Of a DNA stretch of 64,000 nucleotides, positions 390 through 58,532 are shown piece after piece. The notes under the pieces are model-generated. The model saw only the letters and a program-made list of their open reading frames with translations, made no database searches and was not told the origin of the DNA. Where the stretch lies: the NCBI GenBank assembly GCA_024278215.1, contig JAJRTR010000011.1:25583-89582 (forward strand), given 5' to 3'. How positions within the stretch are numbered: position 1 is the stretch's first letter; each line of letters starts with the position of its first letter. Source of the DNA: a bacterium (lineage in GTDB: Bacteria; UBP15; UBA6099; JAJRTR01). A program made the translations under genes and the position numbers.

Positions 390-412
390 CCCGCATTTGT
401 GAAATATGCGGG
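390..412. repeat. REP-like palindrome CCCGCATTTGTGAAATATGCGGG (copy 1)
   Basis: 7-bp stem with a 9-nt loop, immediately 3' of the cheB stop. Further copies at 1765-1787, 19610-19632, 28231-28253 and 58510-58532, with variants at 29487-29505 and 33310-33338. Confidence 0.75.
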
Positions 413-427
413 TTATGAGACACCCAT

Positions 428-1564
428 TTAAGTTTTAGGCGACTCGAACATGTGGCGGTAAATCTCAGAAGCTATTCTTTTGAGCGGCACAACATGGTCG
501 ATAAGTTGCGCGTCCACAGCAGCGCGCGCCATGCCGTATATAGCGCTCGAGTGTTTGTCCTGCGCGATTGTTGTTCCCCCTGCTTCTTTTATGCGACGAA
601 GCCCCTTGAGACCGTCCTGTCCCATACCTGTCATCATTACGGCGAGGCTGCGGGATTTGCAGGTGGCCGAGATCGTTTCGAAGAGAATGTCGGCGCTCGG
701 GCGGTATAGAACATTATCAGGCTTGTCGTCGAGTTCCGCACACAGGCGACCGTTTATCCAAGCCGCTTTCAGGTGAAACTTATCGGGCGAGAAATATACA
801 GTGCCGCTTGCGAGGGGCTCCCCGTCTTCGGCTATTTTTACATTCACGGCACAAGTGCTGTCGAGTCGTTGCGCGATGCCGCTGATGAAACCGGGTATGA
901 TGTGCTGCACCACCAGCATCGGTGCGGGGAACTCCTCGGGCAACTGAGGTACGAATTGGCTCAGAGCGCTGGGACCGCCTGTCGATATGGCGACGCCCAC
1001 GATGTCGAAACTTCTGCCCAGCGTGTTTCTTACGTCGCTGTTGTTTTCCCCGGCTGATTGGATTATCTCTGTTTCAATCTGCTGATCCGGCGATCTTTCC
1101 CGCAGAACGGCGAGAATGTCTTTGAGGGAAACGGGAGCGGTCTTTTTAATGGAGCCTGCACTGACAAGTCTTTTCAGTCTTTGTTCCCTGATGCTGTTTG
1201 TGCCGTTCGATGTTTCGGGAATCTCGATAAGGTCGAGTGCGCCGAGTTTTATACCTTTTTCAATAATATCCTCACAACTTTCGGGCCTTGCGGAAACAAG
1301 GAGAACAGGGATTCTGTACCTGACAAGCAACCTGCAAAGTGTAACGAGCGGGGCGGTTTCCGTGGTGTCGACCGAGAGAAGAATGATATGCGGAGACAGC
1401 CGTGAAACCGTGTCCGCAGCTTTATCCGCCGACCTTTCGTGATGGAGGTCGAAATCAGGGTCGCTGAACAGCGCATCAAAGAACGAAATGATTTTTTCGC
1501 TCTTTGACACCAGTAAAATTATTATCTGTTCCCTGACGTTCAACTTTTCCTCACTGTATTTCAC
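428..1564 (-). CDS. cheB: Chemotaxis response regulator protein-glutamate methylesterase CheB (REC + methylesterase)
   Basis: N-terminal receiver domain; C-terminal methylesterase motifs (ISTGGPSAL, VVQHIIPGF, MTGMGQDG). 378 aa. Confidence 0.85.
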   Translation of the reverse strand: MKYSEEKLNVREQIIILLVSKSEKIISFFDALFSDPDFDLHHERSADKAADTVSRLSPHIILLSVDTTETAPLVTLCRLLVRYRIPVLLVSARPESCEDIIEKGIKLGALDLIEIPETSNGTNSIREQRLKRLVSAGSIKKTAPVSLKDILAVLRERSPDQQIETEIIQSAGENNSDVRNTLGRSFDIVGVAISTGGPSALSQFVPQLPEEFPAPMLVVQHIIPGFISGIAQRLDSTCAVNVKIAEDGEPLASGTVYFSPDKFHLKAAWINGRLCAELDDKPDNVLYRPSADILFETISATCKSRSLAVMMTGMGQDGLKGLRRIKEAGGTTIAQDKHSSAIYGMARAAVDAQLIDHVVPLKRIASEIYRHMFESPKT

Positions 1565-1764
1565 TCTATATATAACGAACTTTTCGCCCGGGTTGCTTCA
1601 CAAAGAAATCCGGGAAATCGTGATAACGTCCATTCTACTTCCGTTGCGGCGGTGGCTCGGGACCGGTCTCCTGAGAATTCAGCTCGACCTCGCCACGAAC
1701 ATAATTTGTAATTGGCTCAACTGAGAAAAGCGGGATTGGTGATTTCCCGCCAGCCACTATTTAG

Positions 1765-1787
1765 CCCGTATTTGTGAGATATGCGGG
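1765..1787. repeat. REP-like palindrome (copy 2)
   Basis: cccgtatttgtgagatatgcggg, between the MCP stop and the cheB start. Confidence 0.7.
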
Positions 1788-1878
1788 TCAGCGCTATATC
1801 CCGGAGCCCCCATGTGGCCGCACTGATGCGGCATACGAAATGCTGGATGCGGCATCGTTAAATAAACATGCGGTGTTA

Positions 1879-11188: not shown

Positions 11189-11294
11189 TTGTCCCCAATA
11201 TAATATCCAGTGATATTACAACCCCTGCGATGTATGCACGAAGAAAAATCATTTCTTCCTTCGCCCACATGCAGTTATTCCTGCTTGTGCGTAT

Positions 11295-11474
11295 GAGCCA
11301 ATTGCAAAATTCTGATTCGGCTGCGGTCGGCTGCAATTGTCCATAGCTGCGTTGTCGGCGCAAAATCATCCTCAACGTACTCCACGAGTACGCCTGCGGG
11401 GATTTTGCACTTCCGCCTTGCTTCTGAATAATTTCGTTCGACCTCGCTTCGAACATAATTTTGCAATTGGCTCG
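11295..11474 (-). mobile_element. MITE-like repeat, full copy A (~180 bp) with terminal inverted repeats GAGCCAATTGCAAAATT
   Basis: Near-identical to copies at 18101-18278 and 32940-33118, in opposite orientation. Flanked by a GTAT/GTAT direct repeat. Nested internal palindromes. Confidence 0.8.
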
Positions 11475-11507
11475 TATAAGTTCGCTTTTCGTTTGCTGTT
11501 TCCCCCA

Positions 11508-17220: not shown

Positions 17221-17512
17221 GACGCCTGCTCCGGTTCCCTTACATGCAAAACTAATTAAGTTTTATGAACTTAATCATTAGATATATATACACACATCAT
17301 GCTGTCGGCTAAACATAATTCTACAAAACACATGCCATCCGATCAAGCTTTATTATGATTTATACATACGGAATTACTGTATTTTCCCTGCATTCAGGAT
17401 GATCTTTCGTTATGTTACGTCGCCTCCGCGCTGTAATCCGGGAAATCATTTATACGAATCGGATTGCCCCGGTATCGGGAAAAAGATAAAATATATGTGA
17501 CACAATTGTCGA

Positions 17513-17558
17513 CAATTGCAGCCGACCGCAGCCGAATCAGAATATTGCAATCGGCTCA
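17513..17558 (+). mobile_element. Solo 3'-end fragment of the MITE-like repeat
   Basis: caattgcagccgaccgcagccgaatcagaatattgcaatcggctc matches the last ~45 bp of the full copies. Confidence 0.65.
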
Positions 17559-17578
17559 AGGAAAATGAGGCACGATCT

Positions 17579-17995: not shown

Positions 17996-18100
17996 AGAGA
18001 AAAAATCTTCAAACACGTTAAAATAGCATACTTTAGCGCACAATAGGATATTTATTTTACTCGACTATTTCGAACTTTCATAGTATTATATAGTCTAATA

Positions 18101-18278
18101 GAGCCAGTTGCAAAATTATGTTCGTAGCGAGGTCGAGCGAAATTGTTCAGAGCAAGGCGGAGGTGCAAAATCCTCGCAGGCGTACTTGTAAAGTACGTCG
18201 AGGACGATTTTATGCCGACAACGCAGCTATGGACAATAGCAGCCGACCGCAGCAGAACCAGAATTTTGCAATTGGCTC
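18101..18278 (+). mobile_element. MITE-like repeat, full copy B
   Basis: Terminal inverted repeats GAGCCAGTTGCAAAATT ... AATTTTGCAATTGGCTC. Flanked by a TAATA/TAATA direct repeat. Confidence 0.8.
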
Positions 18279-18352
18279 TAATAATATGTAAGATTTGCAA
18301 TGTGCTCGAAAGTGTGATGTTTGAATTATACGTTTTTCCGGGAGGATTCGGC

Positions 18353-19300
18353 ATGAAGAGAAACATCTGTATATCAATATTGATTATTTCATTATTGCTG
18401 GTTTTCGGGGCAAAATCGGCCAGGGTGTGTGCGACGGAATTCGAGGTGGCCACGGCCCCGGTTTCCGTAGCGGTGATCGACACCCGGACAGCAGTCGAAG
18501 ATATCACAAGAGCAAAAACAATGATCGAGTCGGAAAACGCGGGAGCAGATGAATTGAAAATGCTCATCGGACATGCAATGCACGTCCTGAGAGGTCCGTT
18601 GCCCAATGGAAAGGGCTATCATCTCGCTACGGTCGATATGGGCGACGATGTCGAGAACACGAACCTTATGAGCGTAAAGATCGACGCAATATGGGAACTC
18701 GGACAGAAGAAAACCATAACTGCCGAGTTGTCTTCGGTATATAAATTTATTATTTATTCACCGCTTCACAGGGGATTCTTCAAGAATAACGGTAACTTCT
18801 ACCTGGACTCCTACACTGTGGAATATACGATAAATGGAATCACCGAATCGAAGACTGTCGAGTACAAGGACTGGATTACAAGAGACAGCACACTTGAGGT
18901 TCCGCTTCCGGGAATAGCGGAATGGGCGAAGCTCGAACTGGTAGTCGGTGTCGAACCGGCGGACGTAAACAACGCGATTTTACAGATTTATGCCAGACAG
19001 CCTGTCGTGGACGATGACCCCAAGAATCCATTTTCGTATTCCATTTCGATGCTTGCCGAAGCGAAAGATAGAATCGAGATCGGCAGACGCCTCAAAGAAA
19101 TCGAGAAATTTCTCGACGAAGCCCTGCTCGGCATAAAAGTCGCAAAGACTTATGCCGCAGATGCGTCTGTTGTCGCCGGGGGACGTGGAATCTCCGTGCA
19201 GGAACTCGAACGTATCCTCTACTTGCTTGAAGGCAACGCGCTCGAAAACGATGAAGGTGTAGAGGAATTAAAAACACTGCTTGAGAAACAAAAGAAGTAA
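18353..19300 (+). CDS. Secreted hypothetical protein (signal peptide)
   Basis: Met at 18353 preceded by a GGAGGA RBS; N-terminal MKRNICISILIISLLLVFGA signal sequence. No recognisable domain. The upstream ORF-track extension runs through the MITE. Confidence 0.55.
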   Translation: MKRNICISILIISLLLVFGAKSARVCATEFEVATAPVSVAVIDTRTAVEDITRAKTMIESENAGADELKMLIGHAMHVLRGPLPNGKGYHLATVDMGDDVENTNLMSVKIDAIWELGQKKTITAELSSVYKFIIYSPLHRGFFKNNGNFYLDSYTVEYTINGITESKTVEYKDWITRDSTLEVPLPGIAEWAKLELVVGVEPADVNNAILQIYARQPVVDDDPKNPFSYSISMLAEAKDRIEIGRRLKEIEKFLDEALLGIKVAKTYAADASVVAGGRGISVQELERILYLLEGNALENDEGVEELKTLLEKQKK

Positions 19301-19609
19301 GAGCGGATTGAAAAAAAATGGTTTCCGGAGCCGATCGCGGCGAAAACAGGATATTGCAGCCGGCTCACCGGTAATCTTTTTTCAGACAAAAAAAATCCTG
19401 CCTTGCTTTTACCCGGATAAGGCAGGAGGAAACCGCGCTCAAAATTGACGAACGCGACATATTTGACGGTTCTCCGGACAACATGCCCGGAGTCCCGGTC
19501 GACTCTATAAATTTCAGGTTTTAAAGTGTTTTTTTGTAGGCCGTACATTTATACTATCCACGCGTTCCGCAATTTTTTCACTTGTTTTAAAAAATCTTTT
19601 CACGCATAA

Positions 19610-19632
19610 CCCGCATATTTCACTAATGCGGG
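19610..19632. repeat. REP-like palindrome (copy 3, inverted orientation)
   Basis: cccgcatatttcactaatgcggg, just 3' of the enoyl-CoA hydratase stop. Confidence 0.7.
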
Positions 19633-19656
19633 CCAAAAAACCATTCGTTCAGCAAT

Positions 19657-20367
19657 TCAGCTCTTCGCGAGAAACTTTCTGAAGACGTCATCATGTTCTA
19701 CGGCAAATGAATCTTCAAAATTTTTATCGACATTTCCTGTCATATAGCTTTTTGTCGTCGCCAGTGTTTCGGACGGCGCCTGGAGAATAGTTTTGGCAAT
19801 ATCAACAGCTTTTCCGATCAATTTTTCAGGTTCTACAACATAGCTGACAAGGCCGATGCGGAGTGCTTCCGCGGCGTCTATTTTTCTTCCCGTCAGGCAC
19901 AAGTCGCGAGCTGTTCCGTGGCCTACGATCCAGCGCAGCGGCGTAAAGAGCGGCGGCCCGCCGAATTTTATTTCAGGATGCGCAAATACTGCTCCGGTCG
20001 CGCAGATACGGATGTCGCACAATACCGCGAGGTCGAAACCACCCCCCATTGCCGCGCCGCCTATCGCCGCGACAACAGGTTTCGGGAAGTTCCACAGGTC
20101 GCGGTGATAGCGTGCCGACGACTCGAACAATTCCTCGCGGCGGTCGGTCCGCCCGAACTCTGTAAGGTCGAAACCCGCGCAGAACACCTTTCCCTCGCCT
20201 GAGAATATGACAGCTTTCGCGTCCGCATTATCCCTGAGTTCGCCAAGTGCGTCGGAAATCTCCCTGCGCATCATTATCGACAGTGCGTTTCTCGCCTCCG
20301 GCCTGTCGAGGACGATCATCACTACTCCATCGGCTTTTTCTTCGATACGTATTGTCTTATATTCCAT
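19657..20367 (-). CDS. Enoyl-CoA hydratase/isomerase (crotonase family)
   Basis: Crotonase-fold signature AVIFSGEGKVFCAGFDL. 236 aa. Confidence 0.8.
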   Translation of the reverse strand: MEYKTIRIEEKADGVVMIVLDRPEARNALSIMMRREISDALGELRDNADAKAVIFSGEGKVFCAGFDLTEFGRTDRREELFESSARYHRDLWNFPKPVVAAIGGAAMGGGFDLAVLCDIRICATGAVFAHPEIKFGGPPLFTPLRWIVGHGTARDLCLTGRKIDAAEALRIGLVSYVVEPEKLIGKAVDIAKTILQAPSETLATTKSYMTGNVDKNFEDSFAVEHDDVFRKFLAKS

Positions 20368-20666
20368 ATTCGGCCCACTTCCTTTGTATGCGTATTTTTT
20401 CTTCTCAGCTGATCCCGGGGAAAATCACTTTGTTATCTGCAACGGTAAGCTTCTGCTCAATTGTATCAGATTATTCACAGCAGGAAACTTGTTCGCGCAA
20501 TTTCGATTTGCGGACCCTTCGCGGAAATTTGACTCTGATATGTCCCTGAACTAAACTGGATCAGCAAGCCGGTATTATATCGACGCAAAGTACAGGGTGG
20601 TGTCACCTCTTCAGGGCGAAGGCCCGGACGAGGCGCAGGATTTTATAATTAAATGAGGATACATTT

Positions 20667-23483
20667 ATGAGAAAAAATACATTTATTCCTATTATCGTGT
20701 CGCTTATCATCGGCGCTTTCATGGTCGGCACATGGCTCATCGGTATATGGACGGATTACCTGTGGTTCGACAACCTGGGCTATAATTCCGTCTTCCTGTC
20801 CATTATACAGACAAAGATAATTCTGGGATTACTTGTCGGCTCCGTATTCTTTGTTGTGCTGTATGCCAACTTCATTATCGCCGACCACCTGAGCAAGGTG
20901 GGTTATATCAAAACCGGCGACAATGCCATCGAACTGCCCGGACTTGAGACGCTGGGCGCAAATTCAAAGTTCATTTTTCTCGGCACGGCAGCCTTCTTCG
21001 CACTCATAATAGGACTCGACGCGTCAAGCAACTGGTCCGCTTTTCTCAAGTTTATGAATGCCGTCAAATTCGGCGCGAACGATCCTGTGTTCGGACTCGA
21101 CATTTCATTCTTTGTATTCCATCTTTCATTTCTTCAGAGCGCCTACCGATGGGTCCTTATGGGATTGATCTTCAGTATCGCAATCTCATTCTCCGTCTAT
21201 GTCACAAAGCGCGGCCTGATAATCACAGAGAATGGAATACATTACCGTGCGACATTGATTTCGCATCTTTCGGTTCTCGCGGCGGCGGCATTTGTGCTCA
21301 AGGCGGTCGGCTACAGGCTGACGGCCTACAGCCTGCTGGTGTCGTCGCGTGGTTTTGTCACAGGAGCGGGCTACACGGATGTTATAGTGCGGCTGCCTGT
21401 GTTGAACATTCTGTATCTTCTGTGTCTCGTGATCGCGGTGATTTTTCTCGCCAACGCATTCTTCAGAACGTGGAAAGTGCCTGTGGGTGCGCTGTTGTTT
21501 TTCGTGCTTGCCGCGGGGCTGGGCGCCGCATATCCCGAGCTGATACAGCGCCTGCGTGTCGAGCCCAACGAAATCTCGATGGAAACGCCCTACATCAAGC
21601 GGCAGATCGACTACACACGCGCGGCTTATGATCTCAACAATGTCACGGTGAAACAGTTCGAAGTCGATGAAAAACTCACTCCCGACGACATCGAGAACAA
21701 CGAACTGACTATTAAAAATGTACGGCTGTGGGACACGCGCCCCCTGTTGCTGACATTCCAGCAACTCCAGGAAATACGCACCTACTACAGCTTCGCGAGC
21801 GTGGACATCGACCGCTACTATATCAACGGCGAATATCGCCAGGTGATGCTGTCGCCGCGCGAGTTGTCCTATGCGCAGCTTCCGAGCAAAATCTGGATCA
21901 ACGAACACCTCTCTTTCACACACGGCTACGGTTTGGTGATGTCGCCTGTCAACAAATTTACACGCGAGGGCATGCCCGAGTTTTTTATCAAGGACATTCC
22001 GCCTGTGTTCGACACAAACATAAAAGTCGACAGGCCGCAGATTTATTACGGCGAACTTTCCAATGATTATGTTTTTACCAGAACAAAATCGGACGAATTC
22101 GACTATCCGCAGGGCGAGCAGAATGTTTTCGCCGACTACACAGGCAAGGGCGGCGTCAAGCTGGATTCCTTATTTAAAAAGGCGGCGTTCGCGCTGAAAT
22201 TCTCGTCGCTTGCTATCCTGCTCAACACAGACATCACGACAGACAGCAGGATAATGATAAACAGGCGGATAACCCCCGGCGCGGGGCGCAGCTCGCGCGC
22301 GGAACGCATTATGCCGCTGCTCGCTTATGACAGCGACCCATACATTGTCGTGGCCGATGGGAAACTCAAGTGGATGATCGACGCCTACACGCTCACTTCT
22401 GCTTATCCTTATTCAGAACATTACCCTCTCGGCGGCAACGGTTCCGGTTTCAACTATATCCGCAACTCGGTTAAAGTAATTATCGACGCCTACGACGGTT
22501 CGGTCGATTTCTATATCTACGATGAGGACGACCCGATTATAAAAACTTATGCGAAAATGTTTCCCACTCTTTTCAAGCCGCGCTCCGAGATGCCCGAAGC
22601 GTTCCGAAGCCATGTGCGATACCCGGATGACCTCTTCAGGGTGCAGACCGACGTCTACACTGTATACCAGATGATGGAACCACAGATTTTCTACAACAAG
22701 GAAGACCTCTGGACTTATCCGCGCGAGCTCTTCTACCAGGCCGAGCAGGAGATGTCGCCATACTATACGATCATGAGACTGCCGGGCGAAAAGAGAGAGG
22801 AGTTTATCCTCATGCTGCCCTTCACTCCAAAGAACAAGGACAACCTTTCAGCCTGGATGTGCGCGCGCAACGACGGCGACAACTACGGTCGCCTGATGGT
22901 CTACAAATTCCCGAAAAAGAAACTGATCTTCGGGCCGTTCCAGGTTGAAGCGCGGATCGACCAGGACCCGGAAATATCGAGACAATTTACGCTCTGGAGC
23001 CAGAAGGGTTCGCAGATAATCCGCGGCAACATGCTGGTGATTCCTATCAGCGATTCGCTGCTGTATGTCGAGCCTGTGTTCCTTAAATCTGATAAGGGCG
23101 AGATACCCGAACTTAAACGAGTGATCGTGTCCACAGGCAGCAGGGTCGTGATGGAACAAACGCTCGAACTCGCCCTCGAGGAACTCATCGGCGAATACAC
23201 AAGTGAGGTCGAAAGACTCGAAAAAGAAGAGGAAGTTAAGTCCGCCGCCGCGACGCCCGGAACGGCGAATAGATCCGATGCTGAACTCGTGAAGCGCAGC
23301 AGGGAATATCTCGATGCCGCGAAACAGAGCCTTCGACAACTCGACTGGCAGGGCTTCGGCGACAATCTCAACAATCTCGAAAAAACACTCGAAGCGCTCG
23401 AAGCGCAAACCGAACAGGAAACTGCGGAACCGCCAGCCGCCGCGCCGGCTGATGGCGAACCAGGCGCGGCATCGGGCAAATAG
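20667..23483 (+). CDS. UPF0182-family large polytopic membrane protein
   Basis: 938 aa; N-terminal multi-TM region (TWLIGIWTDYLWFDNLGY) followed by a large soluble region, characteristic of UPF0182. Confidence 0.65.
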   Translation: MRKNTFIPIIVSLIIGAFMVGTWLIGIWTDYLWFDNLGYNSVFLSIIQTKIILGLLVGSVFFVVLYANFIIADHLSKVGYIKTGDNAIELPGLETLGANSKFIFLGTAAFFALIIGLDASSNWSAFLKFMNAVKFGANDPVFGLDISFFVFHLSFLQSAYRWVLMGLIFSIAISFSVYVTKRGLIITENGIHYRATLISHLSVLAAAAFVLKAVGYRLTAYSLLVSSRGFVTGAGYTDVIVRLPVLNILYLLCLVIAVIFLANAFFRTWKVPVGALLFFVLAAGLGAAYPELIQRLRVEPNEISMETPYIKRQIDYTRAAYDLNNVTVKQFEVDEKLTPDDIENNELTIKNVRLWDTRPLLLTFQQLQEIRTYYSFASVDIDRYYINGEYRQVMLSPRELSYAQLPSKIWINEHLSFTHGYGLVMSPVNKFTREGMPEFFIKDIPPVFDTNIKVDRPQIYYGELSNDYVFTRTKSDEFDYPQGEQNVFADYTGKGGVKLDSLFKKAAFALKFSSLAILLNTDITTDSRIMINRRITPGAGRSSRAERIMPLLAYDSDPYIVVADGKLKWMIDAYTLTSAYPYSEHYPLGGNGSGFNYIRNSVKVIIDAYDGSVDFYIYDEDDPIIKTYAKMFPTLFKPRSEMPEAFRSHVRYPDDLFRVQTDVYTVYQMMEPQIFYNKEDLWTYPRELFYQAEQEMSPYYTIMRLPGEKREEFILMLPFTPKNKDNLSAWMCARNDGDNYGRLMVYKFPKKKLIFGPFQVEARIDQDPEISRQFTLWSQKGSQIIRGNMLVIPISDSLLYVEPVFLKSDKGEIPELKRVIVSTGSRVVMEQTLELALEELIGEYTSEVERLEKEEEVKSAAATPGTANRSDAELVKRSREYLDAAKQSLRQLDWQGFGDNLNNLEKTLEALEAQTEQETAEPPAAAPADGEPGAASGK

Positions 23484-23522
23484 ACTGCCGCCCCTGCGCA
23501 GAACAAAAGAAAGCGCCGGCTC

Positions 23523-28170: not shown

Positions 28171-28230
28171 TTCTTCAAATGCGATTCCAACACGGAGATT
28201 GTGTATTCCCGACGCGCAAAGGATTTTCGG

Positions 28231-28253
28231 CCCGCACTTGTGAAATATGCGGG
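28231..28253. repeat. REP-like palindrome (copy 4)
   Basis: cccgcacttgtgaaatatgcggg, just 3' of the stop of the MetE-like gene. Confidence 0.75.
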
Positions 28254-28263
28254 CTACCCCATC

Positions 28264-29313
28264 TTACGTCTTTTCTTTGTTGCCTCTCAACACCCTTGAA
28301 AGCCGCGCCGTCAGGTCCAGCATCTTAACCGCCTGTCCGGGTGTCAGCGAGCCGGCCCCGCAGGTTGGTGTGATAAGCGCCTGCTCGAGAATCACATTCT
28401 CTTTTATGCCCTTCTTTTCAAGCAGTCTGACTCCATCCTTGAAAATGCCGGTCAGTTTGTTTATGTCCTGCGAATCTATCGCAACGGTGCTGGGCACAAC
28501 ACCCCAGGCCAGCAGGCCGCCGCGTTCGAGATAATCGAATATCTGCTTTGCATAAAGAGACAGCGATTCAGCATATTCGAAAGCGTCGAAATTTATTATG
28601 TCGACATTCGTGGACGCGATCAGCGACCAGTCCGTGTTCCCGCAGCAATGGATACCGGCGGAAGCGCCGGCGGCGTGAATATCGGCGATAACTTCATCGA
28701 GGCTTTTCACGACATCGTCGTACAGCAGCGGCACAGTAGCCGAACCGAAACTCTGCAAGTAGGGCTCGTCGATGAAAATAATAACTTCCGGGTTAAGTCG
28801 CTTCAGGAGCTGAGCCTGACGCCGCGCCTTGCGTCCGAGCCCCTTGACGACTCCATCCTTGAGCATATCGTCGTAGTATGACGCCCTGCCGTTCTGGTCG
28901 CACACGGTAAGACCGAAAGTTATGGGACCTGTGACATGTCCTTTAACAGCAAAATAATCTGTTCCCTTTTCCTTATATTGTCTAATGAATTCATAAAATC
29001 CCGGCGCGTAATCTTCGGATATGTCGAACGGTTCGAGCGCTTCAGACATATAAGTTTCGTAGAACTTTTCCATCACCCCCGGCAGCGCGTCGCCGGTGTC
29101 GGAACTGATCTTCTCATTTTTCGTATCCACTTTCACTGCCGGGATTCCCTCGCTGTACTGCGGGCACATCCCTTCGACAAAAGCGCGCGCCGGAAGCTGC
29201 GGCCACACGGGTATATCCACGAGGCACCTGAAGATATCTTCGAGTGCTTCTCCAGGTGTTTTATAAGGGAAGCTGCCTATAGCAGTCGCTCTGCAAGCGG
29301 GTTGAATATTCAT
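28264..29313 (-). CDS. Cobalamin-independent methionine synthase-like (MetE C-terminal/URO-D-like) protein
   Basis: 349 aa with the N-terminal AIGSFPY motif and the HCCGNTD zinc-binding motif typical of the MetE-like family. Confidence 0.5.
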   Translation of the reverse strand: MNIQPACRATAIGSFPYKTPGEALEDIFRCLVDIPVWPQLPARAFVEGMCPQYSEGIPAVKVDTKNEKISSDTGDALPGVMEKFYETYMSEALEPFDISEDYAPGFYEFIRQYKEKGTDYFAVKGHVTGPITFGLTVCDQNGRASYYDDMLKDGVVKGLGRKARRQAQLLKRLNPEVIIFIDEPYLQSFGSATVPLLYDDVVKSLDEVIADIHAAGASAGIHCCGNTDWSLIASTNVDIINFDAFEYAESLSLYAKQIFDYLERGGLLAWGVVPSTVAIDSQDINKLTGIFKDGVRLLEKKGIKENVILEQALITPTCGAGSLTPGQAVKMLDLTARLSRVLRGNKEKT

Positions 29314-29534
29314 TGCCGTTTGTTCCGTTCTCGTGTTTCAGATCGATTCGATCACAACAAAAAGCGGCTTGCAAAATCGCAGCGTACCGCTCGATTACAT
29401 TTTATTCAGGGTACATGAAAATACAAACAACTATTGGTTGATCGGTTTAAACTTTGTGGTATGAACACTGCAAAATACAGATAGCACGCATATTTAACAG
29501 ATGCGGGTGAAAAATAGAAAGTCAGATGCCGGAT

Positions 29535-32895: not shown

Positions 32896-32939
32896 CTTCG
32901 TCAATAAAACGCCACTCCCGCGAAAGCGGAAGTCTATTT

Positions 32940-34621: not shown

Positions 34622-34863
34622 TCGTTCACAGGCGCATTGTAATCGGCGTAAGCAGCTTCGAGCGCCGGGAGTTTTCTGTTGCTTGAACATATTTCTTATA
34701 GAACTTGTGCGATTTTATAAAAGGTAGTGCCATGTCAACAAAGAAAAGATGTAAGATGGGGTAGCGTAAAAACTGTAAAAGTGTAGAGCGGGGTCACCCT
34801 GCACGTTCGTGCGACATTACATGCCTGACGTGACAGTAGTAGAATTTATGGCGACACGATCCG

Positions 34864-35178
34864 GAACAAAAGGTCAAATTTCAGTCATGCCGAACTTCTT
34901 CAACACCTTAAGGAGTGTCTCTTTGACTTGTATGGCGGTCGGTTCCGCAGGCTGGTGCTGTACGGCAGCGTGGCGCATACCCCCTCATGATAGAGGCTAA
35001 AAAAGAGGGAGCCCGGTCTGACTCTATGGAACAATCGAGCACGCGGAACATGAGGAGGCGGAAGACGATGTCGGAGCTTCCGGAAGAATACTCCGAGCCA
35101 TTCACAAAGCACATACGGATATTTTTCCTCTGGATGCGTTGGCGGTCGAAAGCGACAAAAGCGAATAAAAAAACATAA
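34864..35178 (+). pseudogene. Possible degraded nucleotidyltransferase (MNT-type antitoxin-like) remnant
   Basis: One frame reads AELLQHLKECLFDLYGGRFRRLVLYGSVAHTPS* (LFGS-like NTase motif) and continues out of frame. No intact ORF. Confidence 0.25.
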
Positions 35179-35304
35179 ATTTCATTTCTTCAGAAATATT
35201 CTTTACCCTGACATTGATATTATTAGTACTGGAATTCTGTGCGGGATATTTGTTGCGTTTTTTCAAGTGCCGAACATTCGCACAGAACTTGAAAAGGAAC
35301 AGGG

Positions 35305-36729
35305 ATGTCGAAAAAAAAGACGGACAACAGAAAAACCGGCGAATCAACAAAACTATGGGGCGGTCGCTTCGAGGAATCGACAAACCGCGCCGTGGAGGCC
35401 TTCTCGGCATCGGTGCATTTCGACTGTGAACTCGCTCTCTTCGACATAATGCAGTCTAAAGCGCACGCGACGATGCTGTGCGAGTGCGGCCTGATAAACA
35501 AGACGGAACTGAAGTCGATTCTGAAAGGACTCGACACGATCCGGGCCGACATCGACAGCGGCGAGTTCGTGTTCTCGCCCGCACTCGAGGATGTGCACAT
35601 GAACATCGAGTCGAGGCTCGCGCAGATTGCGGGCCCGGCCGCGGGCAAGCTCCACACCGCCCGCAGCCGCAACGACCAGGTTGTCACCGACCTGAAGATG
35701 TATATAAAACACGCTGTGGAAAAAATAATCGGCGGTGTGAGGGATGTGCAGGCGGCGCTTGTCGAGCAGGCGCGGCGCCACGAGTCGACGGTGATGCCCG
35801 GATACACGCATTTGCAGAGGGCGCAGGCTGTGCCGCTGGGTCATCACCTGATGGCGTATTTCTGGATGCTGGAGCGTGACGCCGGCAGGTTCGCCGATTG
35901 CGCGGTGCGGATGGACACCCTGCCGCTGGGCGCGTGTGCGCTGGCAGGCTCGGCCCTGAAGACGGACCCGGGAATTGTCGCGCGCGAACTCGGCTTCAAA
36001 TCCATCGCCGAGAACAGTATGGACGCAGTCGCCGACCGCGACTTCCTCGTCGAATATCTCTCGGCTTGCGCGATCCTGATGATACACCTGGGCAGGAGTT
36101 GCGAGGAATTTATTATCTGGATGAGCACGGAATTCGATTTCGTGACTTTCCCCGATTCGCTCTGCACCGGCAGCAGCATCATGCCGCAGAAAAAGAACCC
36201 GGATGTTGCCGAACTCATCAGGGGCAGGAACGGTCGTGTGACCGGCGCGCTCGTATCACTGCTGACAACGCTCAAGGGGCTGCCGCTCACTTACAACAGG
36301 GACCTTCAGGAAGACAAGGAGCCTGCGTTCGACGCGACAAAAACAATATTGACATCGCTGGAAGTCTACGCGCTGCTCGTGCGCGGCGCGGCGTTCAATA
36401 CCGCGCGACTCGCGGAATCTACGGCGGACGGTTTTCTCAATGCCGTGGACATAACCGATTATCTCGTGAAAAAAGGGATGCCGTTCAGGGAAACGCATCA
36501 TGTGGTGGGACGGCTCGTAAAGAGGGCGACGGATGCCGGGCGCAGGAATTTCAATGATTTTACACTGAAAGATTTCCGGGCCGAGTCGGATAAGTTCGAT
36601 GAAGATGTTTTTAAAATTCTCGATCCCGCCAAAGGCGTCAAAAGCAGACGCGGTCGCGGCGCGGCGAGCCCGGCGGATGTTCGCAGGCAGATAAAAAAAG
36701 CGGAAAAGATACTGGCACGGAATAAATGA
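35305..36729 (+). CDS. argH: Argininosuccinate lyase
   Basis: TKLWGGRF...; fumarase/aspartase-family signature region. 474 aa. Confidence 0.9.
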   Translation: MSKKKTDNRKTGESTKLWGGRFEESTNRAVEAFSASVHFDCELALFDIMQSKAHATMLCECGLINKTELKSILKGLDTIRADIDSGEFVFSPALEDVHMNIESRLAQIAGPAAGKLHTARSRNDQVVTDLKMYIKHAVEKIIGGVRDVQAALVEQARRHESTVMPGYTHLQRAQAVPLGHHLMAYFWMLERDAGRFADCAVRMDTLPLGACALAGSALKTDPGIVARELGFKSIAENSMDAVADRDFLVEYLSACAILMIHLGRSCEEFIIWMSTEFDFVTFPDSLCTGSSIMPQKKNPDVAELIRGRNGRVTGALVSLLTTLKGLPLTYNRDLQEDKEPAFDATKTILTSLEVYALLVRGAAFNTARLAESTADGFLNAVDITDYLVKKGMPFRETHHVVGRLVKRATDAGRRNFNDFTLKDFRAESDKFDEDVFKILDPAKGVKSRRGRGAASPADVRRQIKKAEKILARNK

Positions 36730-37559
36730 TTGATTTTACAAATCTCATAAGTTTCTTTGAAAACTTCACCGTCTGGGACGGCGTGCGCTCTGTTATCGAG
36801 ATCACGATCATCAGCCTCGGCATATACTACCTTCTGCTGTTCCTTCAGAGGACGCGCGCCGTGGCGATCTTAAGAGGACTCGCGCTGCTGTTCCTTTTCG
36901 CCGCGGCGTCTTATGTCCTGCAACTCAACACGATTTTTTTCATCCTGAAGGGACTCGGCGCGGTCACGATCATCATCCTTCCGATTATATTCCAGCCCGA
37001 ACTTCGCCGCGGCCTCGAACAGATGGGCCAGCGCGGCCTGTGGCAGCGCAGGTTCGGCGGACTCGAAAAGGAACAGATAATAAAACTTATTCATTCGCTC
37101 GTGCTTACGCTCGAGGACCTTTCGATTGTGAAAATGGGTGCGCTGATTGTGCTCGAACAGGAATCGAAACTCGATGAATATTCGCGTTCGGGTACAAAAC
37201 TCGACGCCCTGCTTACGCCGGAACTTCTGAAAACAATCTTCTTCCCGCACACGTTCCTTCACGATGGGGCCGTGCTGGTGCGGGGCGACCGTGTGATGGC
37301 CGCCGGTTGTTTCCTGCCTCTGTCGGAGAATCCGAATCTGCCACAGGATGTAGGCTCGCGACACAGGGCCGCGCTCGGCATATCGGAAGTGACCGATGCC
37401 GTCGCGCTCACTGTTTCCGAGGAGACCGGCCGCATCTCTCTATCCCACAACGGGAAACTCATCCAGGACATCAAACCCGATGCCCTGCGCGAACTGCTTT
37501 ATTCGATTTGCTTCCCGCAGGGAACGACATTTTCTTCGCCCATTGGGAGTGACGATTGA
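36726..37559 (+). CDS. cdaA: Diadenylate cyclase CdaA (DAC domain, membrane-anchored)
   Basis: 3 N-terminal TMs; DAC motifs LHDGAVLVRGD, GSRHRAALGISEVTDA, VSEETGRIS. ATGA overlap with argH. Confidence 0.85.
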   Translation: MIDFTNLISFFENFTVWDGVRSVIEITIISLGIYYLLLFLQRTRAVAILRGLALLFLFAAASYVLQLNTIFFILKGLGAVTIIILPIIFQPELRRGLEQMGQRGLWQRRFGGLEKEQIIKLIHSLVLTLEDLSIVKMGALIVLEQESKLDEYSRSGTKLDALLTPELLKTIFFPHTFLHDGAVLVRGDRVMAAGCFLPLSENPNLPQDVGSRHRAALGISEVTDAVALTVSEETGRISLSHNGKLIQDIKPDALRELLYSICFPQGTTFSSPIGSDD

Positions 37560-38746
37560 GAAAAAAGATACTGAACAACTGGCGCTACAAAGTTTCCGCA
37601 ATAGTGATATCCACATTGCTGTGGCTCTTCATATATTCCGAACATCAGCCCCGCTTCAGGGCGGATTATCCCGTGAATATTCAATATCTGAACCTGCCGA
37701 TTTCGCTCCGGCTCGTCGACAGGGAAGACGTATTGAGAATAAGACTTCAGGGTGAACCGGCAGCACTCAATAACGTGAATAATGAAACCCTGAAAGCCAC
37801 TGTCGACCTGGCCGGGCTGGGCGAGGGAATCCACCGCGTGCAGGTCAAAGTCTTCAACAGCACCGGCGCGCGGCTCGTTCGTCGAAACCATAATGTGCAG
37901 GTCGAACTCGAAAAGCTCAACAGCATCGAAATGCCTGTCAAACTGGGCTTCTTCGGCTCTCTTCCGGTAGGCATGCGGCTCGGCCACGTTACCTTTACTC
38001 CTGAAAAAGTCGTCATCTACGGCCAGACCGACGAACTGGCGCTTGTCCATCTCGTTGTCGCGAATATCGACCTGACGGAAAAGCAAAAGACTTTTCGTGT
38101 TAATGTGCGCCTGTCGGCGGTCGACGACCAGGGCGTTCCGCTCGACGATACTGTGAAGATCGATCCTGAAAGGATTACCGCCGTTGTTCCGGTGAAAAAA
38201 GAATTCGTCAAGGTTGTGCCCATTACGCCCAGGTTTAAAAAGGGGTCCGGGAAAGGCGGGTTCTCGGAGGCGGATTTCTACCCGACTGTCGTCAATCTCG
38301 TCGGCAACGAAGACGCGCTACGGGATATTAAAACTATAGAGACCGAAGAGTTCGACCTTTCGCGCTGCGAAGAGGGCGGCGTCTTCCCGCTCAGGCTGGA
38401 TACACCCAGAAATGTATTCGCAAATGTCGATCGTGTTACTCTCTCATGCAGGTCCGGTCAGGAAATAACACTATCCTTCCTCGTGAATATAAAAGTACTC
38501 AATCTGTGCGAAAACTGCACGTATCAATTAATTCCGAAAAAAATGAAAGTGACTATTACGGGACCTGACAACAAAGTTAATCAGATAAATATCTCGCAGA
38601 TATCCGCGGTTGTCGATGCGCTGGGACTCAAAGAGGGCACACACGACGTGCGATTGCATGTGGAACTCTCGCCGGGTGTCGAAAACGCACAGCTCGACTT
38701 CAATCGGGATAAAGTGAAACTGGTGATTTCGAAGAAAGAGGAATAG
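37556..38746 (+). CDS. cdaR: CdaA regulatory protein CdaR (YbbR-like repeats)
   Basis: N-terminal TM plus repeated YbbR-like beta domains; conserved position between cdaA and glmM. Confidence 0.75.
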   Translation: MRKKILNNWRYKVSAIVISTLLWLFIYSEHQPRFRADYPVNIQYLNLPISLRLVDREDVLRIRLQGEPAALNNVNNETLKATVDLAGLGEGIHRVQVKVFNSTGARLVRRNHNVQVELEKLNSIEMPVKLGFFGSLPVGMRLGHVTFTPEKVVIYGQTDELALVHLVVANIDLTEKQKTFRVNVRLSAVDDQGVPLDDTVKIDPERITAVVPVKKEFVKVVPITPRFKKGSGKGGFSEADFYPTVVNLVGNEDALRDIKTIETEEFDLSRCEEGGVFPLRLDTPRNVFANVDRVTLSCRSGQEITLSFLVNIKVLNLCENCTYQLIPKKMKVTITGPDNKVNQINISQISAVVDALGLKEGTHDVRLHVELSPGVENAQLDFNRDKVKLVISKKEE

Positions 38747-42043: not shown

Positions 42044-42131
42044 TCGACTGTCTCGATATCGCTTACGGCCTCATCCTATCGCTCGGATTACATTCGTTTC
42101 GACAGACGACTACAGATTTTATATCACATAA

Positions 42132-42190
42132 GAGCCAATTGCAAAATTCCGGTTCCGCCGCGGCAGGCGGCAATTGTCCCTGGCCCCGTT
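42132..42190 (-). mobile_element. MITE-like repeat end fragment
   Basis: gagccaattgcaaaattccggttccgccgcggcaggcggcaattgtcc matches the terminal inverted repeat plus subterminal region of copy A. Confidence 0.6.
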
Positions 42191-42270
42191 GCCGGTAAGA
42201 TTACATCGCCTGAAGTGATTATCCATAACCTGATCGCGGGATGCCGCTTTTGCATATAATGTAAAAATAT

Positions 42271-43393: not shown

Positions 43394-43456
43394 GAGCCAT
43401 TTGCAACATTCTGATTCCGCTGCGGCCTCGCTACGAACATAATTTTGCAATCGGCT
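43394..43456 (-). mobile_element. Internally deleted mini-copy of the MITE-like repeat (both ends retained, ~63 bp)
   Basis: gagccatttgcaacattctgattccgctgcgg joined to cctcgctacgaacataattttgcaatcggctc; this matches the 5' and 3' ends of copy A. Confidence 0.6.
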
Positions 43457-43565
43457 CGTATATTGAAATCGCAATGAAGTAACTATATAATTTACGCGAT
43501 CCCTGCTCAGAACAATGACATAAACATAATATTGCAGGAAATCCAACATACAGACGTGGTGCTAT

Positions 43566-49584: not shown

Positions 49585-50472
49585 TTGAAAGAATATCTCC
49601 CCAGAAAAAGTTTCCTGACGAAATCCGGTGTTGTCCTTTCCATCGTTTTGCATATTCTCGTGTTCTCGATCCCGGTAGCGCTTGTCGTCAGGCCGCCCGA
49701 CCCGAATAAGGAGAGAAAAGTCGAACTCATCTTCGAAAAACCCCGGCAACAGGCACCAAAACCAAAGCCCGCGCCTCCGAAACCAAAGCCAAAACCGAAA
49801 CCCGTGCGAAAAATCAAACCGCGACCAAAACCGCCGCCTGAGCCGCCTGAGCCGAAACAGCAAGCCGCCGAGCCGAAATCGCCCATCGAGGCCGCTGTAG
49901 CCGACGCAGGCGGCATCGACATCCCCACCGGACCCGCTTATGAAGAAGTGTATGTGCCGCCGCCTTATGTTCCCGCATGTGGAAACGGCGTGCTCGACGA
50001 CGGCGAAGAATGCGACGATGGCAACACCACAGACGGCGACGGCTGCGCTGCCGGGTGCGCACTGGAATATACCCCCGGTTGCGGCAACGGTGTGCTGGAC
50101 GCGGGCGAAGAATGCGACGACGGCAACAACGCAGACGGCGATGGCTGCTCCGCCGGGTGCCTCGATGAAGTCTATAGGCAAAACCTGCTTGCCGAATATC
50201 AGAAAAGCATACTTCTGACAATTGAACGGAATAAGAAATACCCGCCGGCGGCGCGGCGGCGCGGCATACAGGGAGCGGCGAAAGTTAGATTCGACATCGC
50301 GGCAGACGGAGCAGTCAGCGGCGTCGCGCTCGACAAAACTTCCGGGTACGACATACTCGATCGTGAAGCCCTCGCCACCATCACTCGCATAGGCCGCTTC
50401 GCCCCCATTCCCGAACCGCTCGATATGCCGCGGATGGAGATTTCCGTTGCCATCGTTTTCCGGCTCCAGTAA
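49585..50472 (+). CDS. tonB: TonB-like energy transducer with two inserted cysteine-rich ([16 protein letters not shown]..DGDGC) repeats
   Basis: N-terminal TM; Pro/Lys-rich spacer; C-terminal TonB domain ([22 protein letters not shown]...). Between them, two tandem ~31-aa Cys-rich repeats. Confidence 0.7.
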
Positions 50473-56314: not shown

Positions 56315-56491
56315 TATACATTATCGCTGCACTTTGTAAAAGTTGCTGCACAGCATTTTTGTATGCGATTTACAGGTCTGAATATTCCGAAAAATATTTG
56401 CTTATCGAGTGGGTCGTCAATAAAGTTATGTGTTTGTGGTTTCAGGAGATGGGAGGTTTCGGTTCCGGCGGTACCGGGCAGGAAAAATAAA

Positions 56492-58495
56492 TTGATAAAT
56501 TTCAACGCGTTGAACAGAGAACAGAGGGACGCTGTCAGGTGCGTAAAAGGCCCGGTGGTGGTCGTGGCGGGCGCGGGCACCGGCAAGACACGCACAATCG
56601 CCTATCGCACGGCACACATGCTCGAGGTCGGCATCGAGCCGGGCGCGATTCTCGCCATTACATTCACAAACAAAGCAGCCCGTGAGATGCGCGAGCGCAT
56701 ATCTGCGATGGTCGGCTTCGATACCTGCACAGATATAACGATTTCGACAATCCACTCGCTCTGTGCCCGCATCCTTCGCGACGACATAGATAAAGTCGGG
56801 CGCGACACAAGCTTCACGATATTCGACACTTCCGACCAGGTCGGTATTATCAGAAAAGCACTCGCCAAACATGGATTCGACCCCCGCAAGAATGAACCGC
56901 GCGCGCTTCAGTTCGGTATCAGTACGTTAAAAAATATTTATCCGCCGGTGGATGTCGACGACATTGCGGACCCGGTGATGAGCCGTGTGTTCCCGACCTA
57001 CAACAAAATGCTCGAGGACAATAACGCGCTGGATTTCGACGATCTTCTCCTTTTCGCGATACGCGTGCTGGACATACCCGAGTGTCGCGACAGGTACCGC
57101 GAGCGGTTCCGGTATGTGATGGTCGATGAGTTTCAGGACATAAACGACATCCAGTACGGTATCGTGCGCCGTCTTGTGGGCAAGCGGAGCAACATATATG
57201 TGGTGGGCGACGATGACCAGAGCATATACGGCTGGCGGGGCGCAGTGGTGGACAACTTTCTGAATTTCGAGGAGGACTTCGCCGGAGCCCGCGAGGTCAA
57301 GCTCGAACGCAATTACCGCTCGACCGGCGTAATACTCGAAGCATCGGGCGCGGTGATAGAAAACAACGAGAAGCGCCGCAGGAAGAAACTCTGGACGTCC
57401 GGCAAAGCAGGCGACCCTATCGGCATGATCGAAGCCCTGGACGAGCAGGACGAGGCAACTCTCGTCATCGACTGCATCGTAGGCGACAAGCAGCGGCTGA
57501 ACATGAAGTACGGCGACTTCGCTATCCTGTACCGCACAAACGCGCAGTCGCGGGTTTTTGAAGAGAAGCTGGTGCGAATGGGCATATCTTATATCCTCAT
57601 CGGCGGCACTCGCTTCTTCGAGCGCAAAGAGATCAAGGACATGACGGCGTTCCTGCGTGTGATGCACAATCCGGAGGACGAGACGGCGCTGCTGCGCGTG
57701 ATAAATTATCCGCCGCGCGGCATCGGCGCGACATCGCTGGACCGCATCCGTGACGCAGCCCTCGAAGCGCGCCGACCGTTGTTCCACTGTCTCGAATATG
57801 CCGTCCACAGTGACAATATACCGAAAAAAGCGCGAAAAGGCGTCGCCCGTTTCCTCGAAGTCATAGAGGCGGCAAGGCAGAAACTTAAGGCGGGCGGCCT
57901 CGCCACTGCCGGAAAGTTTATCGTCGACGAACTCGACATCGAGAATGCCGTCCGGAAATCGTATTCCGACCGCAACGAGGCGGACAGGCGTTTCATGAAC
58001 GTCGAGGAATGGATCAACTCGCTCATTGAATACGAATCCAACGAGCCGAAACCGACAATCGAAGGGTACCTCGAGAACGTGGCGCTCATGACCGACGAGC
58101 AGGAAGTCGACACGGAACTTAAGGAAGACTCGATCACGATGATGACCGTGCACAGCGCGAAAGGGCTCGAGTTCCACACAGTGTTCATCGTCGGCGCGGA
58201 AGAAAAGCTGCTGCCGCATGAGAAATCCATTCAGGACGGCAGCATCGACGAAGAACGCCGCCTGTTCTATGTGGCCATGACGCGCGCGCGCCGCAAACTC
58301 TATATCAGCTATGCCGCCGAGCGCAGAAGATACGGCGAGACGCAGCCGCGCATCACATCGCGCTTCGTCGGCGAGATACCGGAAGAACTTTTCTCGTATC
58401 AAAGCGTTAAGGATATCGAAGAGCGCAGACTCGAGTCCGGCAAAAAACTTGCATCCACTTCGCTCAAACGAATAGCCATGATGCTGGAAGACTGA
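56492..58495 (+). CDS. uvrD: ATP-dependent DNA helicase UvrD/PcrA family
   Basis: LNREQRDAV; Walker A AGAGTGKTRT; helicase motifs through VHSAKGLEF and YVAMTRAR. The ORF-track start at 56147 overlaps the ACAD gene, so an in-frame TTG at 56492 is the more plausible start. Confidence 0.75.
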   Translation: MINFNALNREQRDAVRCVKGPVVVVAGAGTGKTRTIAYRTAHMLEVGIEPGAILAITFTNKAAREMRERISAMVGFDTCTDITISTIHSLCARILRDDIDKVGRDTSFTIFDTSDQVGIIRKALAKHGFDPRKNEPRALQFGISTLKNIYPPVDVDDIADPVMSRVFPTYNKMLEDNNALDFDDLLLFAIRVLDIPECRDRYRERFRYVMVDEFQDINDIQYGIVRRLVGKRSNIYVVGDDDQSIYGWRGAVVDNFLNFEEDFAGAREVKLERNYRSTGVILEASGAVIENNEKRRRKKLWTSGKAGDPIGMIEALDEQDEATLVIDCIVGDKQRLNMKYGDFAILYRTNAQSRVFEEKLVRMGISYILIGGTRFFERKEIKDMTAFLRVMHNPEDETALLRVINYPPRGIGATSLDRIRDAALEARRPLFHCLEYAVHSDNIPKKARKGVARFLEVIEAARQKLKAGGLATAGKFIVDELDIENAVRKSYSDRNEADRRFMNVEEWINSLIEYESNEPKPTIEGYLENVALMTDEQEVDTELKEDSITMMTVHSAKGLEFHTVFIVGAEEKLLPHEKSIQDGSIDEERRLFYVAMTRARRKLYISYAAERRRYGETQPRITSRFVGEIPEELFSYQSVKDIEERRLESGKKLASTSLKRIAMMLED

Positions 58496-58509
58496 CATCA
58501 TGCTGTTAG

Positions 58510-58532
58510 CCCGCATTGGTGAAATATACGGG
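58510..58532. repeat. REP-like palindrome (copy 5)
   Basis: cccgcattggtgaaatatacggg, 15 bp after the uvrD stop. Confidence 0.7.

Follow-up and report, generated by a model that had tools for sequence, protein, structure and literature searches.

Six copies of a short hairpin-forming sequence lie between the genes of a 64,000-nucleotide stretch of contig JAJRTR010000011.1 (hereafter the window), which comes from a bacterium of the lineage UBP15. We consider it probable that these hairpins make up a lineage-restricted family of miniature repeats of the repetitive extragenic palindrome (REP) type, that is, a family of non-autonomous mobile DNA. Such a family extends the range of REP-type repeats to a poorly known uncultured lineage, whose nearest named relatives share ~45% protein identity with it; to a specialist, it is a new family of a known type in an obscure lineage and nothing unexpected.

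Anatomy and placement of the hairpins

The 23-mer CCCGCATTTGTGAAATATGCGGG matches the window at six sites with 0–3 mismatches, as compared with 0.00 matches expected from 100 dinucleotide shuffles. The copies (W1–W6, Table 1) extend from 390 to 58532, or one per 10.7 kb, and all copy counts given here refer to the 64-kb window alone. The core hairpin has a 7-bp stem (CCCGCAT/ATGCGGG) and a 9-nt loop (TTKGTGAAA), just as the initial annotation of this DNA had described its recurrent 23-bp motif. We built a covariance model of a 35-nt unit from 15 unique aligned copies, taken from the window and from metagenomes; run on the window with filters off, it recovered exactly the six hairpins (E <= 5e-13) and nothing else significant. 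One of these is a looser variant that had been proposed at 29487 and is a true member of the family (W5). A second variant, proposed at 33310, has to be dropped, as its hairpin (33310–33337) shares the CCGCAT/ATGCGGG stem alone and has no support from the model (E = 0.46); a near-match at 54890, which the model did not detect, was also rejected as a diverged member. The single arm CCCGCAT occurs 13 times versus 8 expected, nearly always inside the six hairpins, with no excess outside them.

The sequence flanking the hairpin is conserved but asymmetric, with TTTYNR in the six bases upstream and YTA in the three bases downstream (11 solo copies). The whole unit is ~32 nt long and, on the strand with the loop ATTTCACAA, reads 5'-TAR-CCCGCAT-ATTTCACMA-ATGCGGG-YNRAAA-3'. 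The triplet at its foot on this strand, which we call the tag, is a stop codon in most of the 17 unique copies (TAA in 8, TAG in 4, TGA in 2 and another triplet in 3), and the base in front of this triplet, the first of the NTAR form of the tag, is G in 2 of the 17. Intact copies are predicted to fold as RNA at −9 to −15 kcal/mol. The fold of W1, which appears in the mRNA sense as the reverse complement, comes to −11.4/−11.9 kcal/mol, and that of W3, with its stem extended to 10 bp, to −14.4 kcal/mol. W5 is the most decayed copy, with a broken stem (−3.9/−5.4 kcal/mol, z about −1), and W2 has decayed in the mRNA sense to a similar level (−4.3 kcal/mol), so that these two stand at about −4 kcal/mol. 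Every stem substitution is single and is not accompanied by a compensating change; the one in W2 weakens the hairpin in the transcribed sense. With a stem-loop core of 23 nt, or ~32 nt with the flanks, the unit falls within the size range described for REPs, which are 20–40 bp long and have 6–13 bp stems (PMC3733652).

Table 1. Hairpin copies and associated features of the window
Feature	Position	Strand	Description
W1 unit	384..415	+	hairpin 390-412, 0 mismatches; T-rich side and TTA tag; 49.1 bits, E = 2e-15
Possible decayed A-type hairpin	1587..1628	+	CCCGGGTTGCTTCACAAAGAAATCCGGG + AAATCGTGATAACG; nhmmer with composite-element profile, weak, E = 0.0076
Intrinsic terminator of the MCP gene	1724..1751	-	GGCGGGA-loop-TCCCGC, then TTTTCTC; kept in the relative without the hairpin repeat (alignment of the intergenic region with L096/L097)
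W2 unit	1759..1790	+	hairpin 1765-1787, 2 mismatches; TCA tag; E = 5.5e-13
W3 unit	19607..19638	-	hairpin 19610-19632, 1 mismatch; TTA tag; 50.9 bits
W4 unit	28225..28256	+	hairpin 28231-28253, 1 mismatch; CTA tag; 47.3 bits
30-nt stretch abutting W4	28253..28282	-	last five codons (NKEKT), stop and spacer of the URO-D/MetE-like gene, up to the foot of W4
W5 unit	29482..29513	-	hairpin 29485-29507, 3 mismatches; CTA tag; 43.5 bits
W6 unit	58504..58535	+	hairpin 58510-58532, 2 mismatches; TTA tag; 47.6 bits

Annotation of the ~48 open reading frames (ORFs) of the window revealed a chemotaxis cluster (cheA, cheW, a gene for a methyl-accepting chemotaxis protein (MCP), cheB, cheR), as well as rpoN, ruvCA, argGH, cdaA-ybbR-glmM, lepB, uvrD/pcrA and others. 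All six hairpins are intergenic, while intergenic DNA accounts for 10.6% of the window; four of them are in unidirectional spacers, two in convergent ones and none in a divergent one. W1 occupies a 62-nt spacer between the stop of cheB (428) and the start (365) of the next minus-strand ORF, and W2 is located in the 3' untranslated region (3'UTR) of the minus-strand MCP gene. W3 and W4 are found between convergent genes, behind those for an enoyl-CoA hydratase (19657-20367, minus strand) and a URO-D/MetE-like enzyme (28264-29313, minus strand), respectively. W5 follows a CHASE2 gene (29535-30671, minus strand) and W6 follows uvrD/pcrA, whose stop is at 58495; the loop of W6 is the TTGGTG variant that dominates in the metagenome Ga0265297. 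The nearest stop codon is 15, 91, 24, 10, 27 and 14 nt away from W1 to W6, so that the distance of ~5–25 bp from the 3' end of a gene that had been claimed for every copy describes about five of the six (10–27 nt) and fails for the copy at 1765. For copies that are intergenic, a clustering of five or more out of six within 30 nt of 3' ends has a probability of 0.0003, which bears out the positional bias toward stop codons within the window; the placement of the copies is non-random. The copies are split 3:3 in their orientation to the nearest upstream gene, in agreement with the earlier statement that both orientations occur.

The tag itself could in principle end the neighbouring gene. In the window, the YTA tag is in frame with that gene twice, yet each time downstream of the real stop, and we rejected this idea for the window copies. 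In one metagenome copy (L008), the tag TGA does serve as the stop codon of the flanking gene. In that locus (1636-1667), two convergent genes are just 26 nt apart and the spacer is essentially the hairpin alone: one of its feet is abutted by the TGA stop of a radical-SAM-like gene, B12-binding by eye, and 3 nt separate the other foot from the TAG with which the opposing gene ends.

The hairpins resemble rho-independent terminators in being GC-rich stem-loops shortly after a stop codon. They are unlike such terminators in that neither strand of any copy (0/6) carries a T-run after the hairpin, loop sequences are conserved, copies are present in both orientations, one copy is situated upstream of a genuine conserved terminator and one is inside a co-directional gene pair. 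A terminator scan, which covered 20 kb (18001–38000), picked up none of the six copies. W2 is not the terminator of the MCP gene, because a relative that lacks W2 conserves the true terminator, which in the window is 13 nt downstream of W2. W1 separates cheB from a downstream ORF on the same strand (3-365) that has a gene-like codon score of 0.29, and a terminator at this site, between co-directional genes, would be unwelcome. The suggestion of the initial annotation that these are dispersed REP-like palindromes and not independent terminators therefore gains support from the conservation of both loop and stem, the missing U-tract, the two orientations and the uncompensated stem mutations; it is further supported by the absence of the motif at orthologous sites of the nearest relative and its recurrence in other metagenomic populations within a multi-copy 174-bp element (see below), and by the position and the stop-codon-like tag, which match the published behaviour of REPs (PMC3733652). 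Downstream U-tracts combined with freely varying loops, the pattern of ordinary terminators, were not seen, the loops being near-identical. In genome annotation, hairpins with this motif should not be labelled terminators.

Distribution of the motif and its relation to a 174-bp element

The nearest relative that we found (Logan SRR28370467) shares 73–81% protein identity with the source of the window and is devoid of the motif at four orthologous sites in all. The hairpin is missing from the 47 nt that follow the stop of the orthologous uvrD gene in relative L001 (81% identical), from both sides of the URO-D/MetE-like gene and from the MCP-cheB spacer, although this spacer can be aligned. The covariance model found no copy in 56 kb of sequence from relatives at 49–59% identity. 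A scan of 185,579 species genomes with a degenerate motif produced 0 matches, as did a scan of a viral collection, and a UvrD search of the species genomes returned generic PcrA matches only (38–44% identity). In metagenomes, the motif was found on 12 contigs, 8 of these from Ga0265297. Rfam had no match in the window and gave a tRNA only for the motif-bearing loci; a tRNA search of the window found none, and a literature search for the sequence retrieved no paper. As a specific marker, the 23-mer allows this population to be followed in metagenomes.

One metagenome match, CCCGCATTGGTGAGATATGCGGG, occurs at 2325-2347 of L002 and 3272-3294 of L007 (WNFV01092242.1 and WNFZ01062155.1) and differs from the window consensus by two mismatches. 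It is in frame inside an ORF for a HipA-like kinase (...LITRIGEICGLN...), for which intragenic insertion would be the alternative reading. We did not accept it as a member, since it is probably fortuitous: its flanks show no homology and about one chance match is expected at this database size.

In Ga0265297, six of nine copies of the hairpin form the last 23 nt of a conserved 174-bp element. Five of the six element copies are complete and the sixth is cut by a contig end; they are 93–95% identical to each other. From one end to the other, the element consists of a hairpin with a 12-bp stem (hairpin A, CCTGGATTTTTC-ACNA-GAAAAATCCAGG), a long imperfect central palindrome and hairpin B, which is the 23-nt motif. 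It folds far better than its shuffles on both strands (z about −6), matches no Rfam family and has no similarity to sequences in plasmid or phage collections. A diverged right half of the element is present in a third population, L006/L012 (E = 3e-8 with the element profile).

Read inward, the termini of the element are imperfect inverted repeats, CCTGGATTTTTCACCAG versus CCCGCATATTTCACCAA, that agree at 13 of 17 positions (CCyGsATwTTTCACCA). After each terminus come its own complement and, beyond that, AAATCGnAAAAAGG, and the shared sequence extends to about 45 nt. The ~16 nt common to both ends form the stem in hairpin A and the loop in hairpin B; what the ends have in common is thus a sequence rather than a structure, and this sequence looks like a candidate recognition site for a protein. 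The 4-nt flanks of the five complete copies (YTAA) are TTAA/TTAA, TTAA/TTAA, CTAA/CTAA, CTAA/CTGA and TCAA/TTAA, and agree as direct repeats at 18 of 20 positions. Three of these pairs are uninformative with regard to the type of flank, because TTAA is its own reverse complement; the two that are informative, L013 (CTAA/CTAA) and L003 (CTAA/CTGA), favour direct over inverted repeats.

The doublet of hairpins A and B was seen intact only in this other population, and the window has singlets plus one weak candidate pair at 1587 and 1765. Solo copies retain at most ~10 nt of inner element sequence (CCGAAAATCC in W4, TGGAAAC in L004) and then diverge; as judged from these boundaries, they appear to behave as isolated termini. 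The candidate A-type hairpin at 1587 is inverted relative to W2, 150 nt away from it, is identical to hairpin A and its inner flank at 31 of 42 positions and contains one compensatory change, from T-A to C-G. The idea that W2 is the end of a decayed full-length composite is weakened by the presence, in the interval, of a terminator that is conserved in the relative without the repeats. Because of that terminator, the hairpin at 1587 and W2 would be at most two separate ends, and not one intact element.

The restricted distribution and the absence of the hairpins at orthologous sites argue for mobile dispersal followed by neutral decay, and against selected or independently formed RNA structures. 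The same follows from the loops, whose near-identity is not needed for structure alone, and from the lack of compensatory changes.

Mode of spread and alternative explanations

We infer from these data the following course of events. The hairpin would be the folded-back terminus of a larger element, and a transposase gene at another place in the genome would have supplied the enzyme that spread units of this type in trans. The singlets would derive from the doublet element, or would form its minimal version, and would now be decaying neutrally. Copies would survive, or insert, in 3'UTRs and intercistronic spacers right behind stop codons, where the stop-codon-like tag could act as a stop codon or sit against one. 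An intact copy would put a hairpin of the above stability on the 3' end of the upstream message, as expected for W4, W6 and W1 at 10–15 nt behind stops, without being a terminator, and this added hairpin may incidentally protect the message or hinder ribosomes at the stop codon. REPs of E. coli stabilise upstream mRNA, and in this species hairpins behind stop codons can also impede terminating ribosomes. Translation is reportedly reduced by REPs that are no more than about 15 nt away from a stop codon.

Several observations weigh against mobility. Insertion is deduced from absence in a relative at 73–81% identity, with no pair of an empty and a filled site having alignable flanks, and the solo copies show no target-site duplication. 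Only two of the five composite copies separate direct-repeat from inverted-repeat flanks. Hairpin B is conserved far above its neighbours, including the A-type candidate at 1587 (~74% identity), which could reflect selection on the hairpin itself, and the strong bias to positions within ~30 nt of stops could reflect a function for the host. Finally, copy number, doublets and transposase are all judged from 64 kb of the source genome.

Known systems offer parallels on both sides of the question of how the repeats have moved. The GTAG REPs (Di Nocera, De Gregorio and Rocco 2013, PMC3733652), which include the REP and bacterial interspersed mosaic elements (BIMEs) of E. coli and the REPs of Pseudomonas, occupy spacers of the convergent or unidirectional type and are frequently <20 bp away from a 3' end; in many cases a stop codon is provided by their end tag, and they form head-to-head dimers 20–100 bp apart (PMC3733652). 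Like them, the family described here is made of short extragenic palindromes with stems in the 6–13 bp range, has an unpaired conserved tag at one foot only that can supply a stop codon, occurs as singletons and as head-to-head dimers with the tags outward, occupies spacers that are convergent or unidirectional, close behind the upstream ORF, and is confined to one lineage, as GTAG REP families are confined to a species or lineage. Unlike them, it has the tag TAR (TAA > TAG > TGA) with a variable first base instead of GTAG, its dimer, which measures 174 bp in all, combines two unlike hairpins with ~100 nt between them, and its host is a deep-branching uncultured lineage. Its loop of 9 nt is strongly conserved, whereas most REPs have loops of 2–3 nt; the GTAG-15 family has loops of 9–15 nt. 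The REP doublets known as REPINs (Bertels and Rainey 2011, PMC3116915) are likewise foldable units of ~170–190 nt made of two inverted hairpins and a spacer, and here, too, the multi-copy doublets are more homogeneous (93–95%) than the singlets, which resemble decaying remnants; the differences are that the two arms of our doublet are different hairpins and that its flanks look like a 4-nt target duplication. Bacterial miniature inverted-repeat transposable elements (MITEs), for instance those of the Correia, RUP and ERIC types, share with the 174-bp element a non-coding sequence of ~170–200 bp, an intergenic location, multiple copies, terminal inverted repeats, short direct-repeat flanks and a strong predicted secondary structure. 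In contrast to these MITEs, each terminus of this element is itself a self-complementary hairpin, and the commonest form in the window is an isolated terminus of 23–32 nt and not the whole element. The REP-like hairpin thus doubles as the folded-back terminal repeat of a MITE-like element, which bears on the unsettled relation between REPs and MITEs and on the enzymes that move them.

Mobility could take two enzymatic forms. Imperfect terminal inverted repeats and 4-nt direct-repeat flanks are typical traces of a DDE transposase and not of an HUH enzyme, and in this respect the ends and flanks of the element appear to suggest an ordinary DDE transposase at least as strongly as a REP-associated tyrosine transposase (RAYT); mobilisation by a RAYT is no more likely than a conventional MITE mechanism. 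It is a plausible, if less than even, prospect that the 174-bp element is a conventional MITE whose DDE transposase recognises CCyGsATwTTTCACCA and generates 4-bp duplications of a YTAA target. On this view, deletion or abortive events would have left the 23-nt hairpins behind as solitary, folded-back ends. Such a MITE would be one enzymatic version of the mobile family that we favour. The inverted-repeat termini (13/17, reaching about 45 nt with AAATCGnAAAAAGG) and the direct-repeat flanks (18/20, with L013 and L003 as the informative cases) speak for such a MITE. In addition, the window contains a second, unrelated MITE family with several solitary ends (see the last section), so solo ends appear to be a normal fate in this genome. 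On the other side, just five copies of the element are complete, three of the five are uninformative owing to the self-complementarity of TTAA, solo copies lack any duplication and none of the loci retrieved contained an autonomous insertion sequence (IS) bounded by such ends. The ends of IS1380-family elements begin with CC and the elements generate 4–5 bp duplications. The left inverted repeat (IRL) of ISEcp1, which we take to be CCTAGATTCTACGT, resembles CCTGGATTTTTCAC at 9 of 14 positions; kinship with IS1380 is a lead only.

Strict REPs and REPINs, moved as single-stranded hairpins by a single-copy RAYT (an HUH enzyme of the Y1 type, related to IS200/IS605) that is encoded elsewhere and flanked by hairpins, would be the other form, which we regard as possible but rather unlikely. 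The hairpins are extragenic and have an unpaired conserved tag at one foot (TAR, near the TAG of GTAG), their placement agrees with that of GTAG REPs, the doublet of two inverted hairpins with outward tags and a folding spacer matches REPINs (PMC3116915) and head-to-head dimers (PMC3733652), and restriction to a lineage is typical of vertically inherited REPIN-RAYT systems. However, no transposase, Y1/IS200-like or any other, was identified among the ~48 ORFs of the window (no Y1_Tnp domain, PF01797), nor was one found in the ORF listings of the inspected motif-bearing metagenome contigs. The tag, NTAR, is related to the published GTAG consensus but lies outside its degeneracy, with G as the first base in only 2 of 17 unique copies. 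The doublet has a different hairpin at each end, and what the two have in common is a 16-nt sequence, not a structure; the 4-nt direct repeats that flank the doublet in L013 and L003 are not a product of HUH transposition. We also considered W4 and W5 as flanks of a transposase gene and rejected this, as the gene between them encodes the URO-D/MetE-like enzyme, which has hundreds of homologues.

A different type of explanation sees in the hairpin a 3'UTR element of host RNA that is under selection. It might terminate transcription, block 3'-exonucleases or be bound, as RNA, by a protein that recognises the conserved loop, and its spread and conservation would then reflect function and not mobility. 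The concentration of five of the six copies within 30 nt of a stop fits this view, and so do the observations that copies in co-directional spacers are always nearer to the upstream stop than to the downstream start, that conservation of the hairpin is far above that of its surroundings and that the stem can be extended by G-U-compatible pairs in the sense with the loop TTKGTGAAA. Consensus hairpin-plus-U-tract sites also show no excess over shuffles (26 versus 22.8 expected in the 20 kb from 18001 to 38000). Nevertheless, we find such a function improbable. The 3:3 orientation relative to transcription would place two different loops in RNA; U-tracts are lacking; a conserved real terminator comes after W2, and W1 is intercistronic; the stems show no compensatory changes, with W2 (−4.3 kcal/mol) and W5 (−3.9 kcal/mol) essentially unfolded in the mRNA sense; the hairpins are absent at orthologous sites of a close relative; the same sequence ends a multi-copy 174-bp element; and there is no Rfam match.

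The two views could be combined if the hairpin were a 3'UTR module co-opted from a mobile element, with its conserved loop recognised by a dedicated protein that controls how stable mRNA 3' ends are or how efficiently translation terminates, and with insertions at stops supplying new stop codons and short C-terminal tails, as exemplified by the NKEKT tail and the shorter cheB described below. We give this speculative scenario little credence. Finally, it is hardly conceivable that the hairpin is a DNA-level site, i.e. a paired DNA-uptake sequence or an operator with 7-N9-7 geometry for a dimeric regulator. Such a site would fit the perfect inverted repetition of the arms and their fixed spacing, but the hairpins are behind genes and never in divergent or promoter spacers, one per 10.7 kb is too dense for a regulon, the spacer and flanks are conserved yet asymmetric, and single arms are not over-represented outside the hairpins (13 versus 8 expected), for which reason the uptake-sequence idea was rejected.

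Gene ends next to the hairpins and other features of the window

The C-termini encoded next to two of the hairpins deviate from those of their homologues. The URO-D/MetE-like protein has a five-residue tail (NKEKT) past the ...LRG at which all of its homologues end and at which a 30-nt repeat begins. This 30-nt stretch, which abuts W4 (Table 1), is duplicated at 29 of 30 positions at 34736-34765 on the plus strand, in the argG-argH spacer, where there is no hairpin and where it would read as a 10-codon mini-ORF (MSTKKRCKMG*). The duplicate was tried as an 'empty site' of W4 and rejected, since homology past the insertion site of W4 is not significant. The product of cheB (428-1564, minus strand) ends in ...MFESPKT*, about 8–11 residues short of all homologues recovered (e.g. 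...MFDSSGAGDATVSYTERHK), and a second in-frame TAA follows 15 nt further on, directly against hairpin W1. The stop codons and last few codons of cheB and of the URO-D/MetE-like gene may be derived from the element.

The second MITE-like family of the window is unrelated to the hairpins and has a length of ~190–200 bp. Its full copies are at 11293-11478, 18092-18297 and 32931-33128, and partial sites with one terminus are at 1676-1724, 17500-17567, 42113-42195 and 43423-43462. It has terminal inverted repeats of ~35 nt (GAGCCAATTGCAAAATTnTGnTCG...; GAGCCAATTGCAAAATT...) and 4-nt direct-repeat flanks (ATAC, AATA, ATTT), with no transposase nearby.

The spacer upstream of argG (33230-33337) contains a perfect 10-bp hairpin, GTTTCCAAGG-TAAA-CCTTGGAAAC, at 33230-33253, a 17-nt direct repeat, GTGCCGTGCTCAAACCG, at 33267 and 33296, and, at 33310-33337, the hairpin with an 8-bp stem that had been proposed as a family member; it has no Rfam match. 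Between the convergent genes for a response regulator (end 59337) and an ABC ATPase (end 59398), there is a large inverted repeat (59341-59414), possibly a bidirectional terminator, whose 36-nt arms are separated by 2 nt and show 78% complementarity. Two tandem 87-nt units at 49972-50160, with a 102-nt spacing and 84% identity, encode a Cys/Asp/Gly-rich repeat (...DGDGC...). The real gene in this region is probably on the plus strand, as the minus-strand ORFs there have non-coding codon scores.

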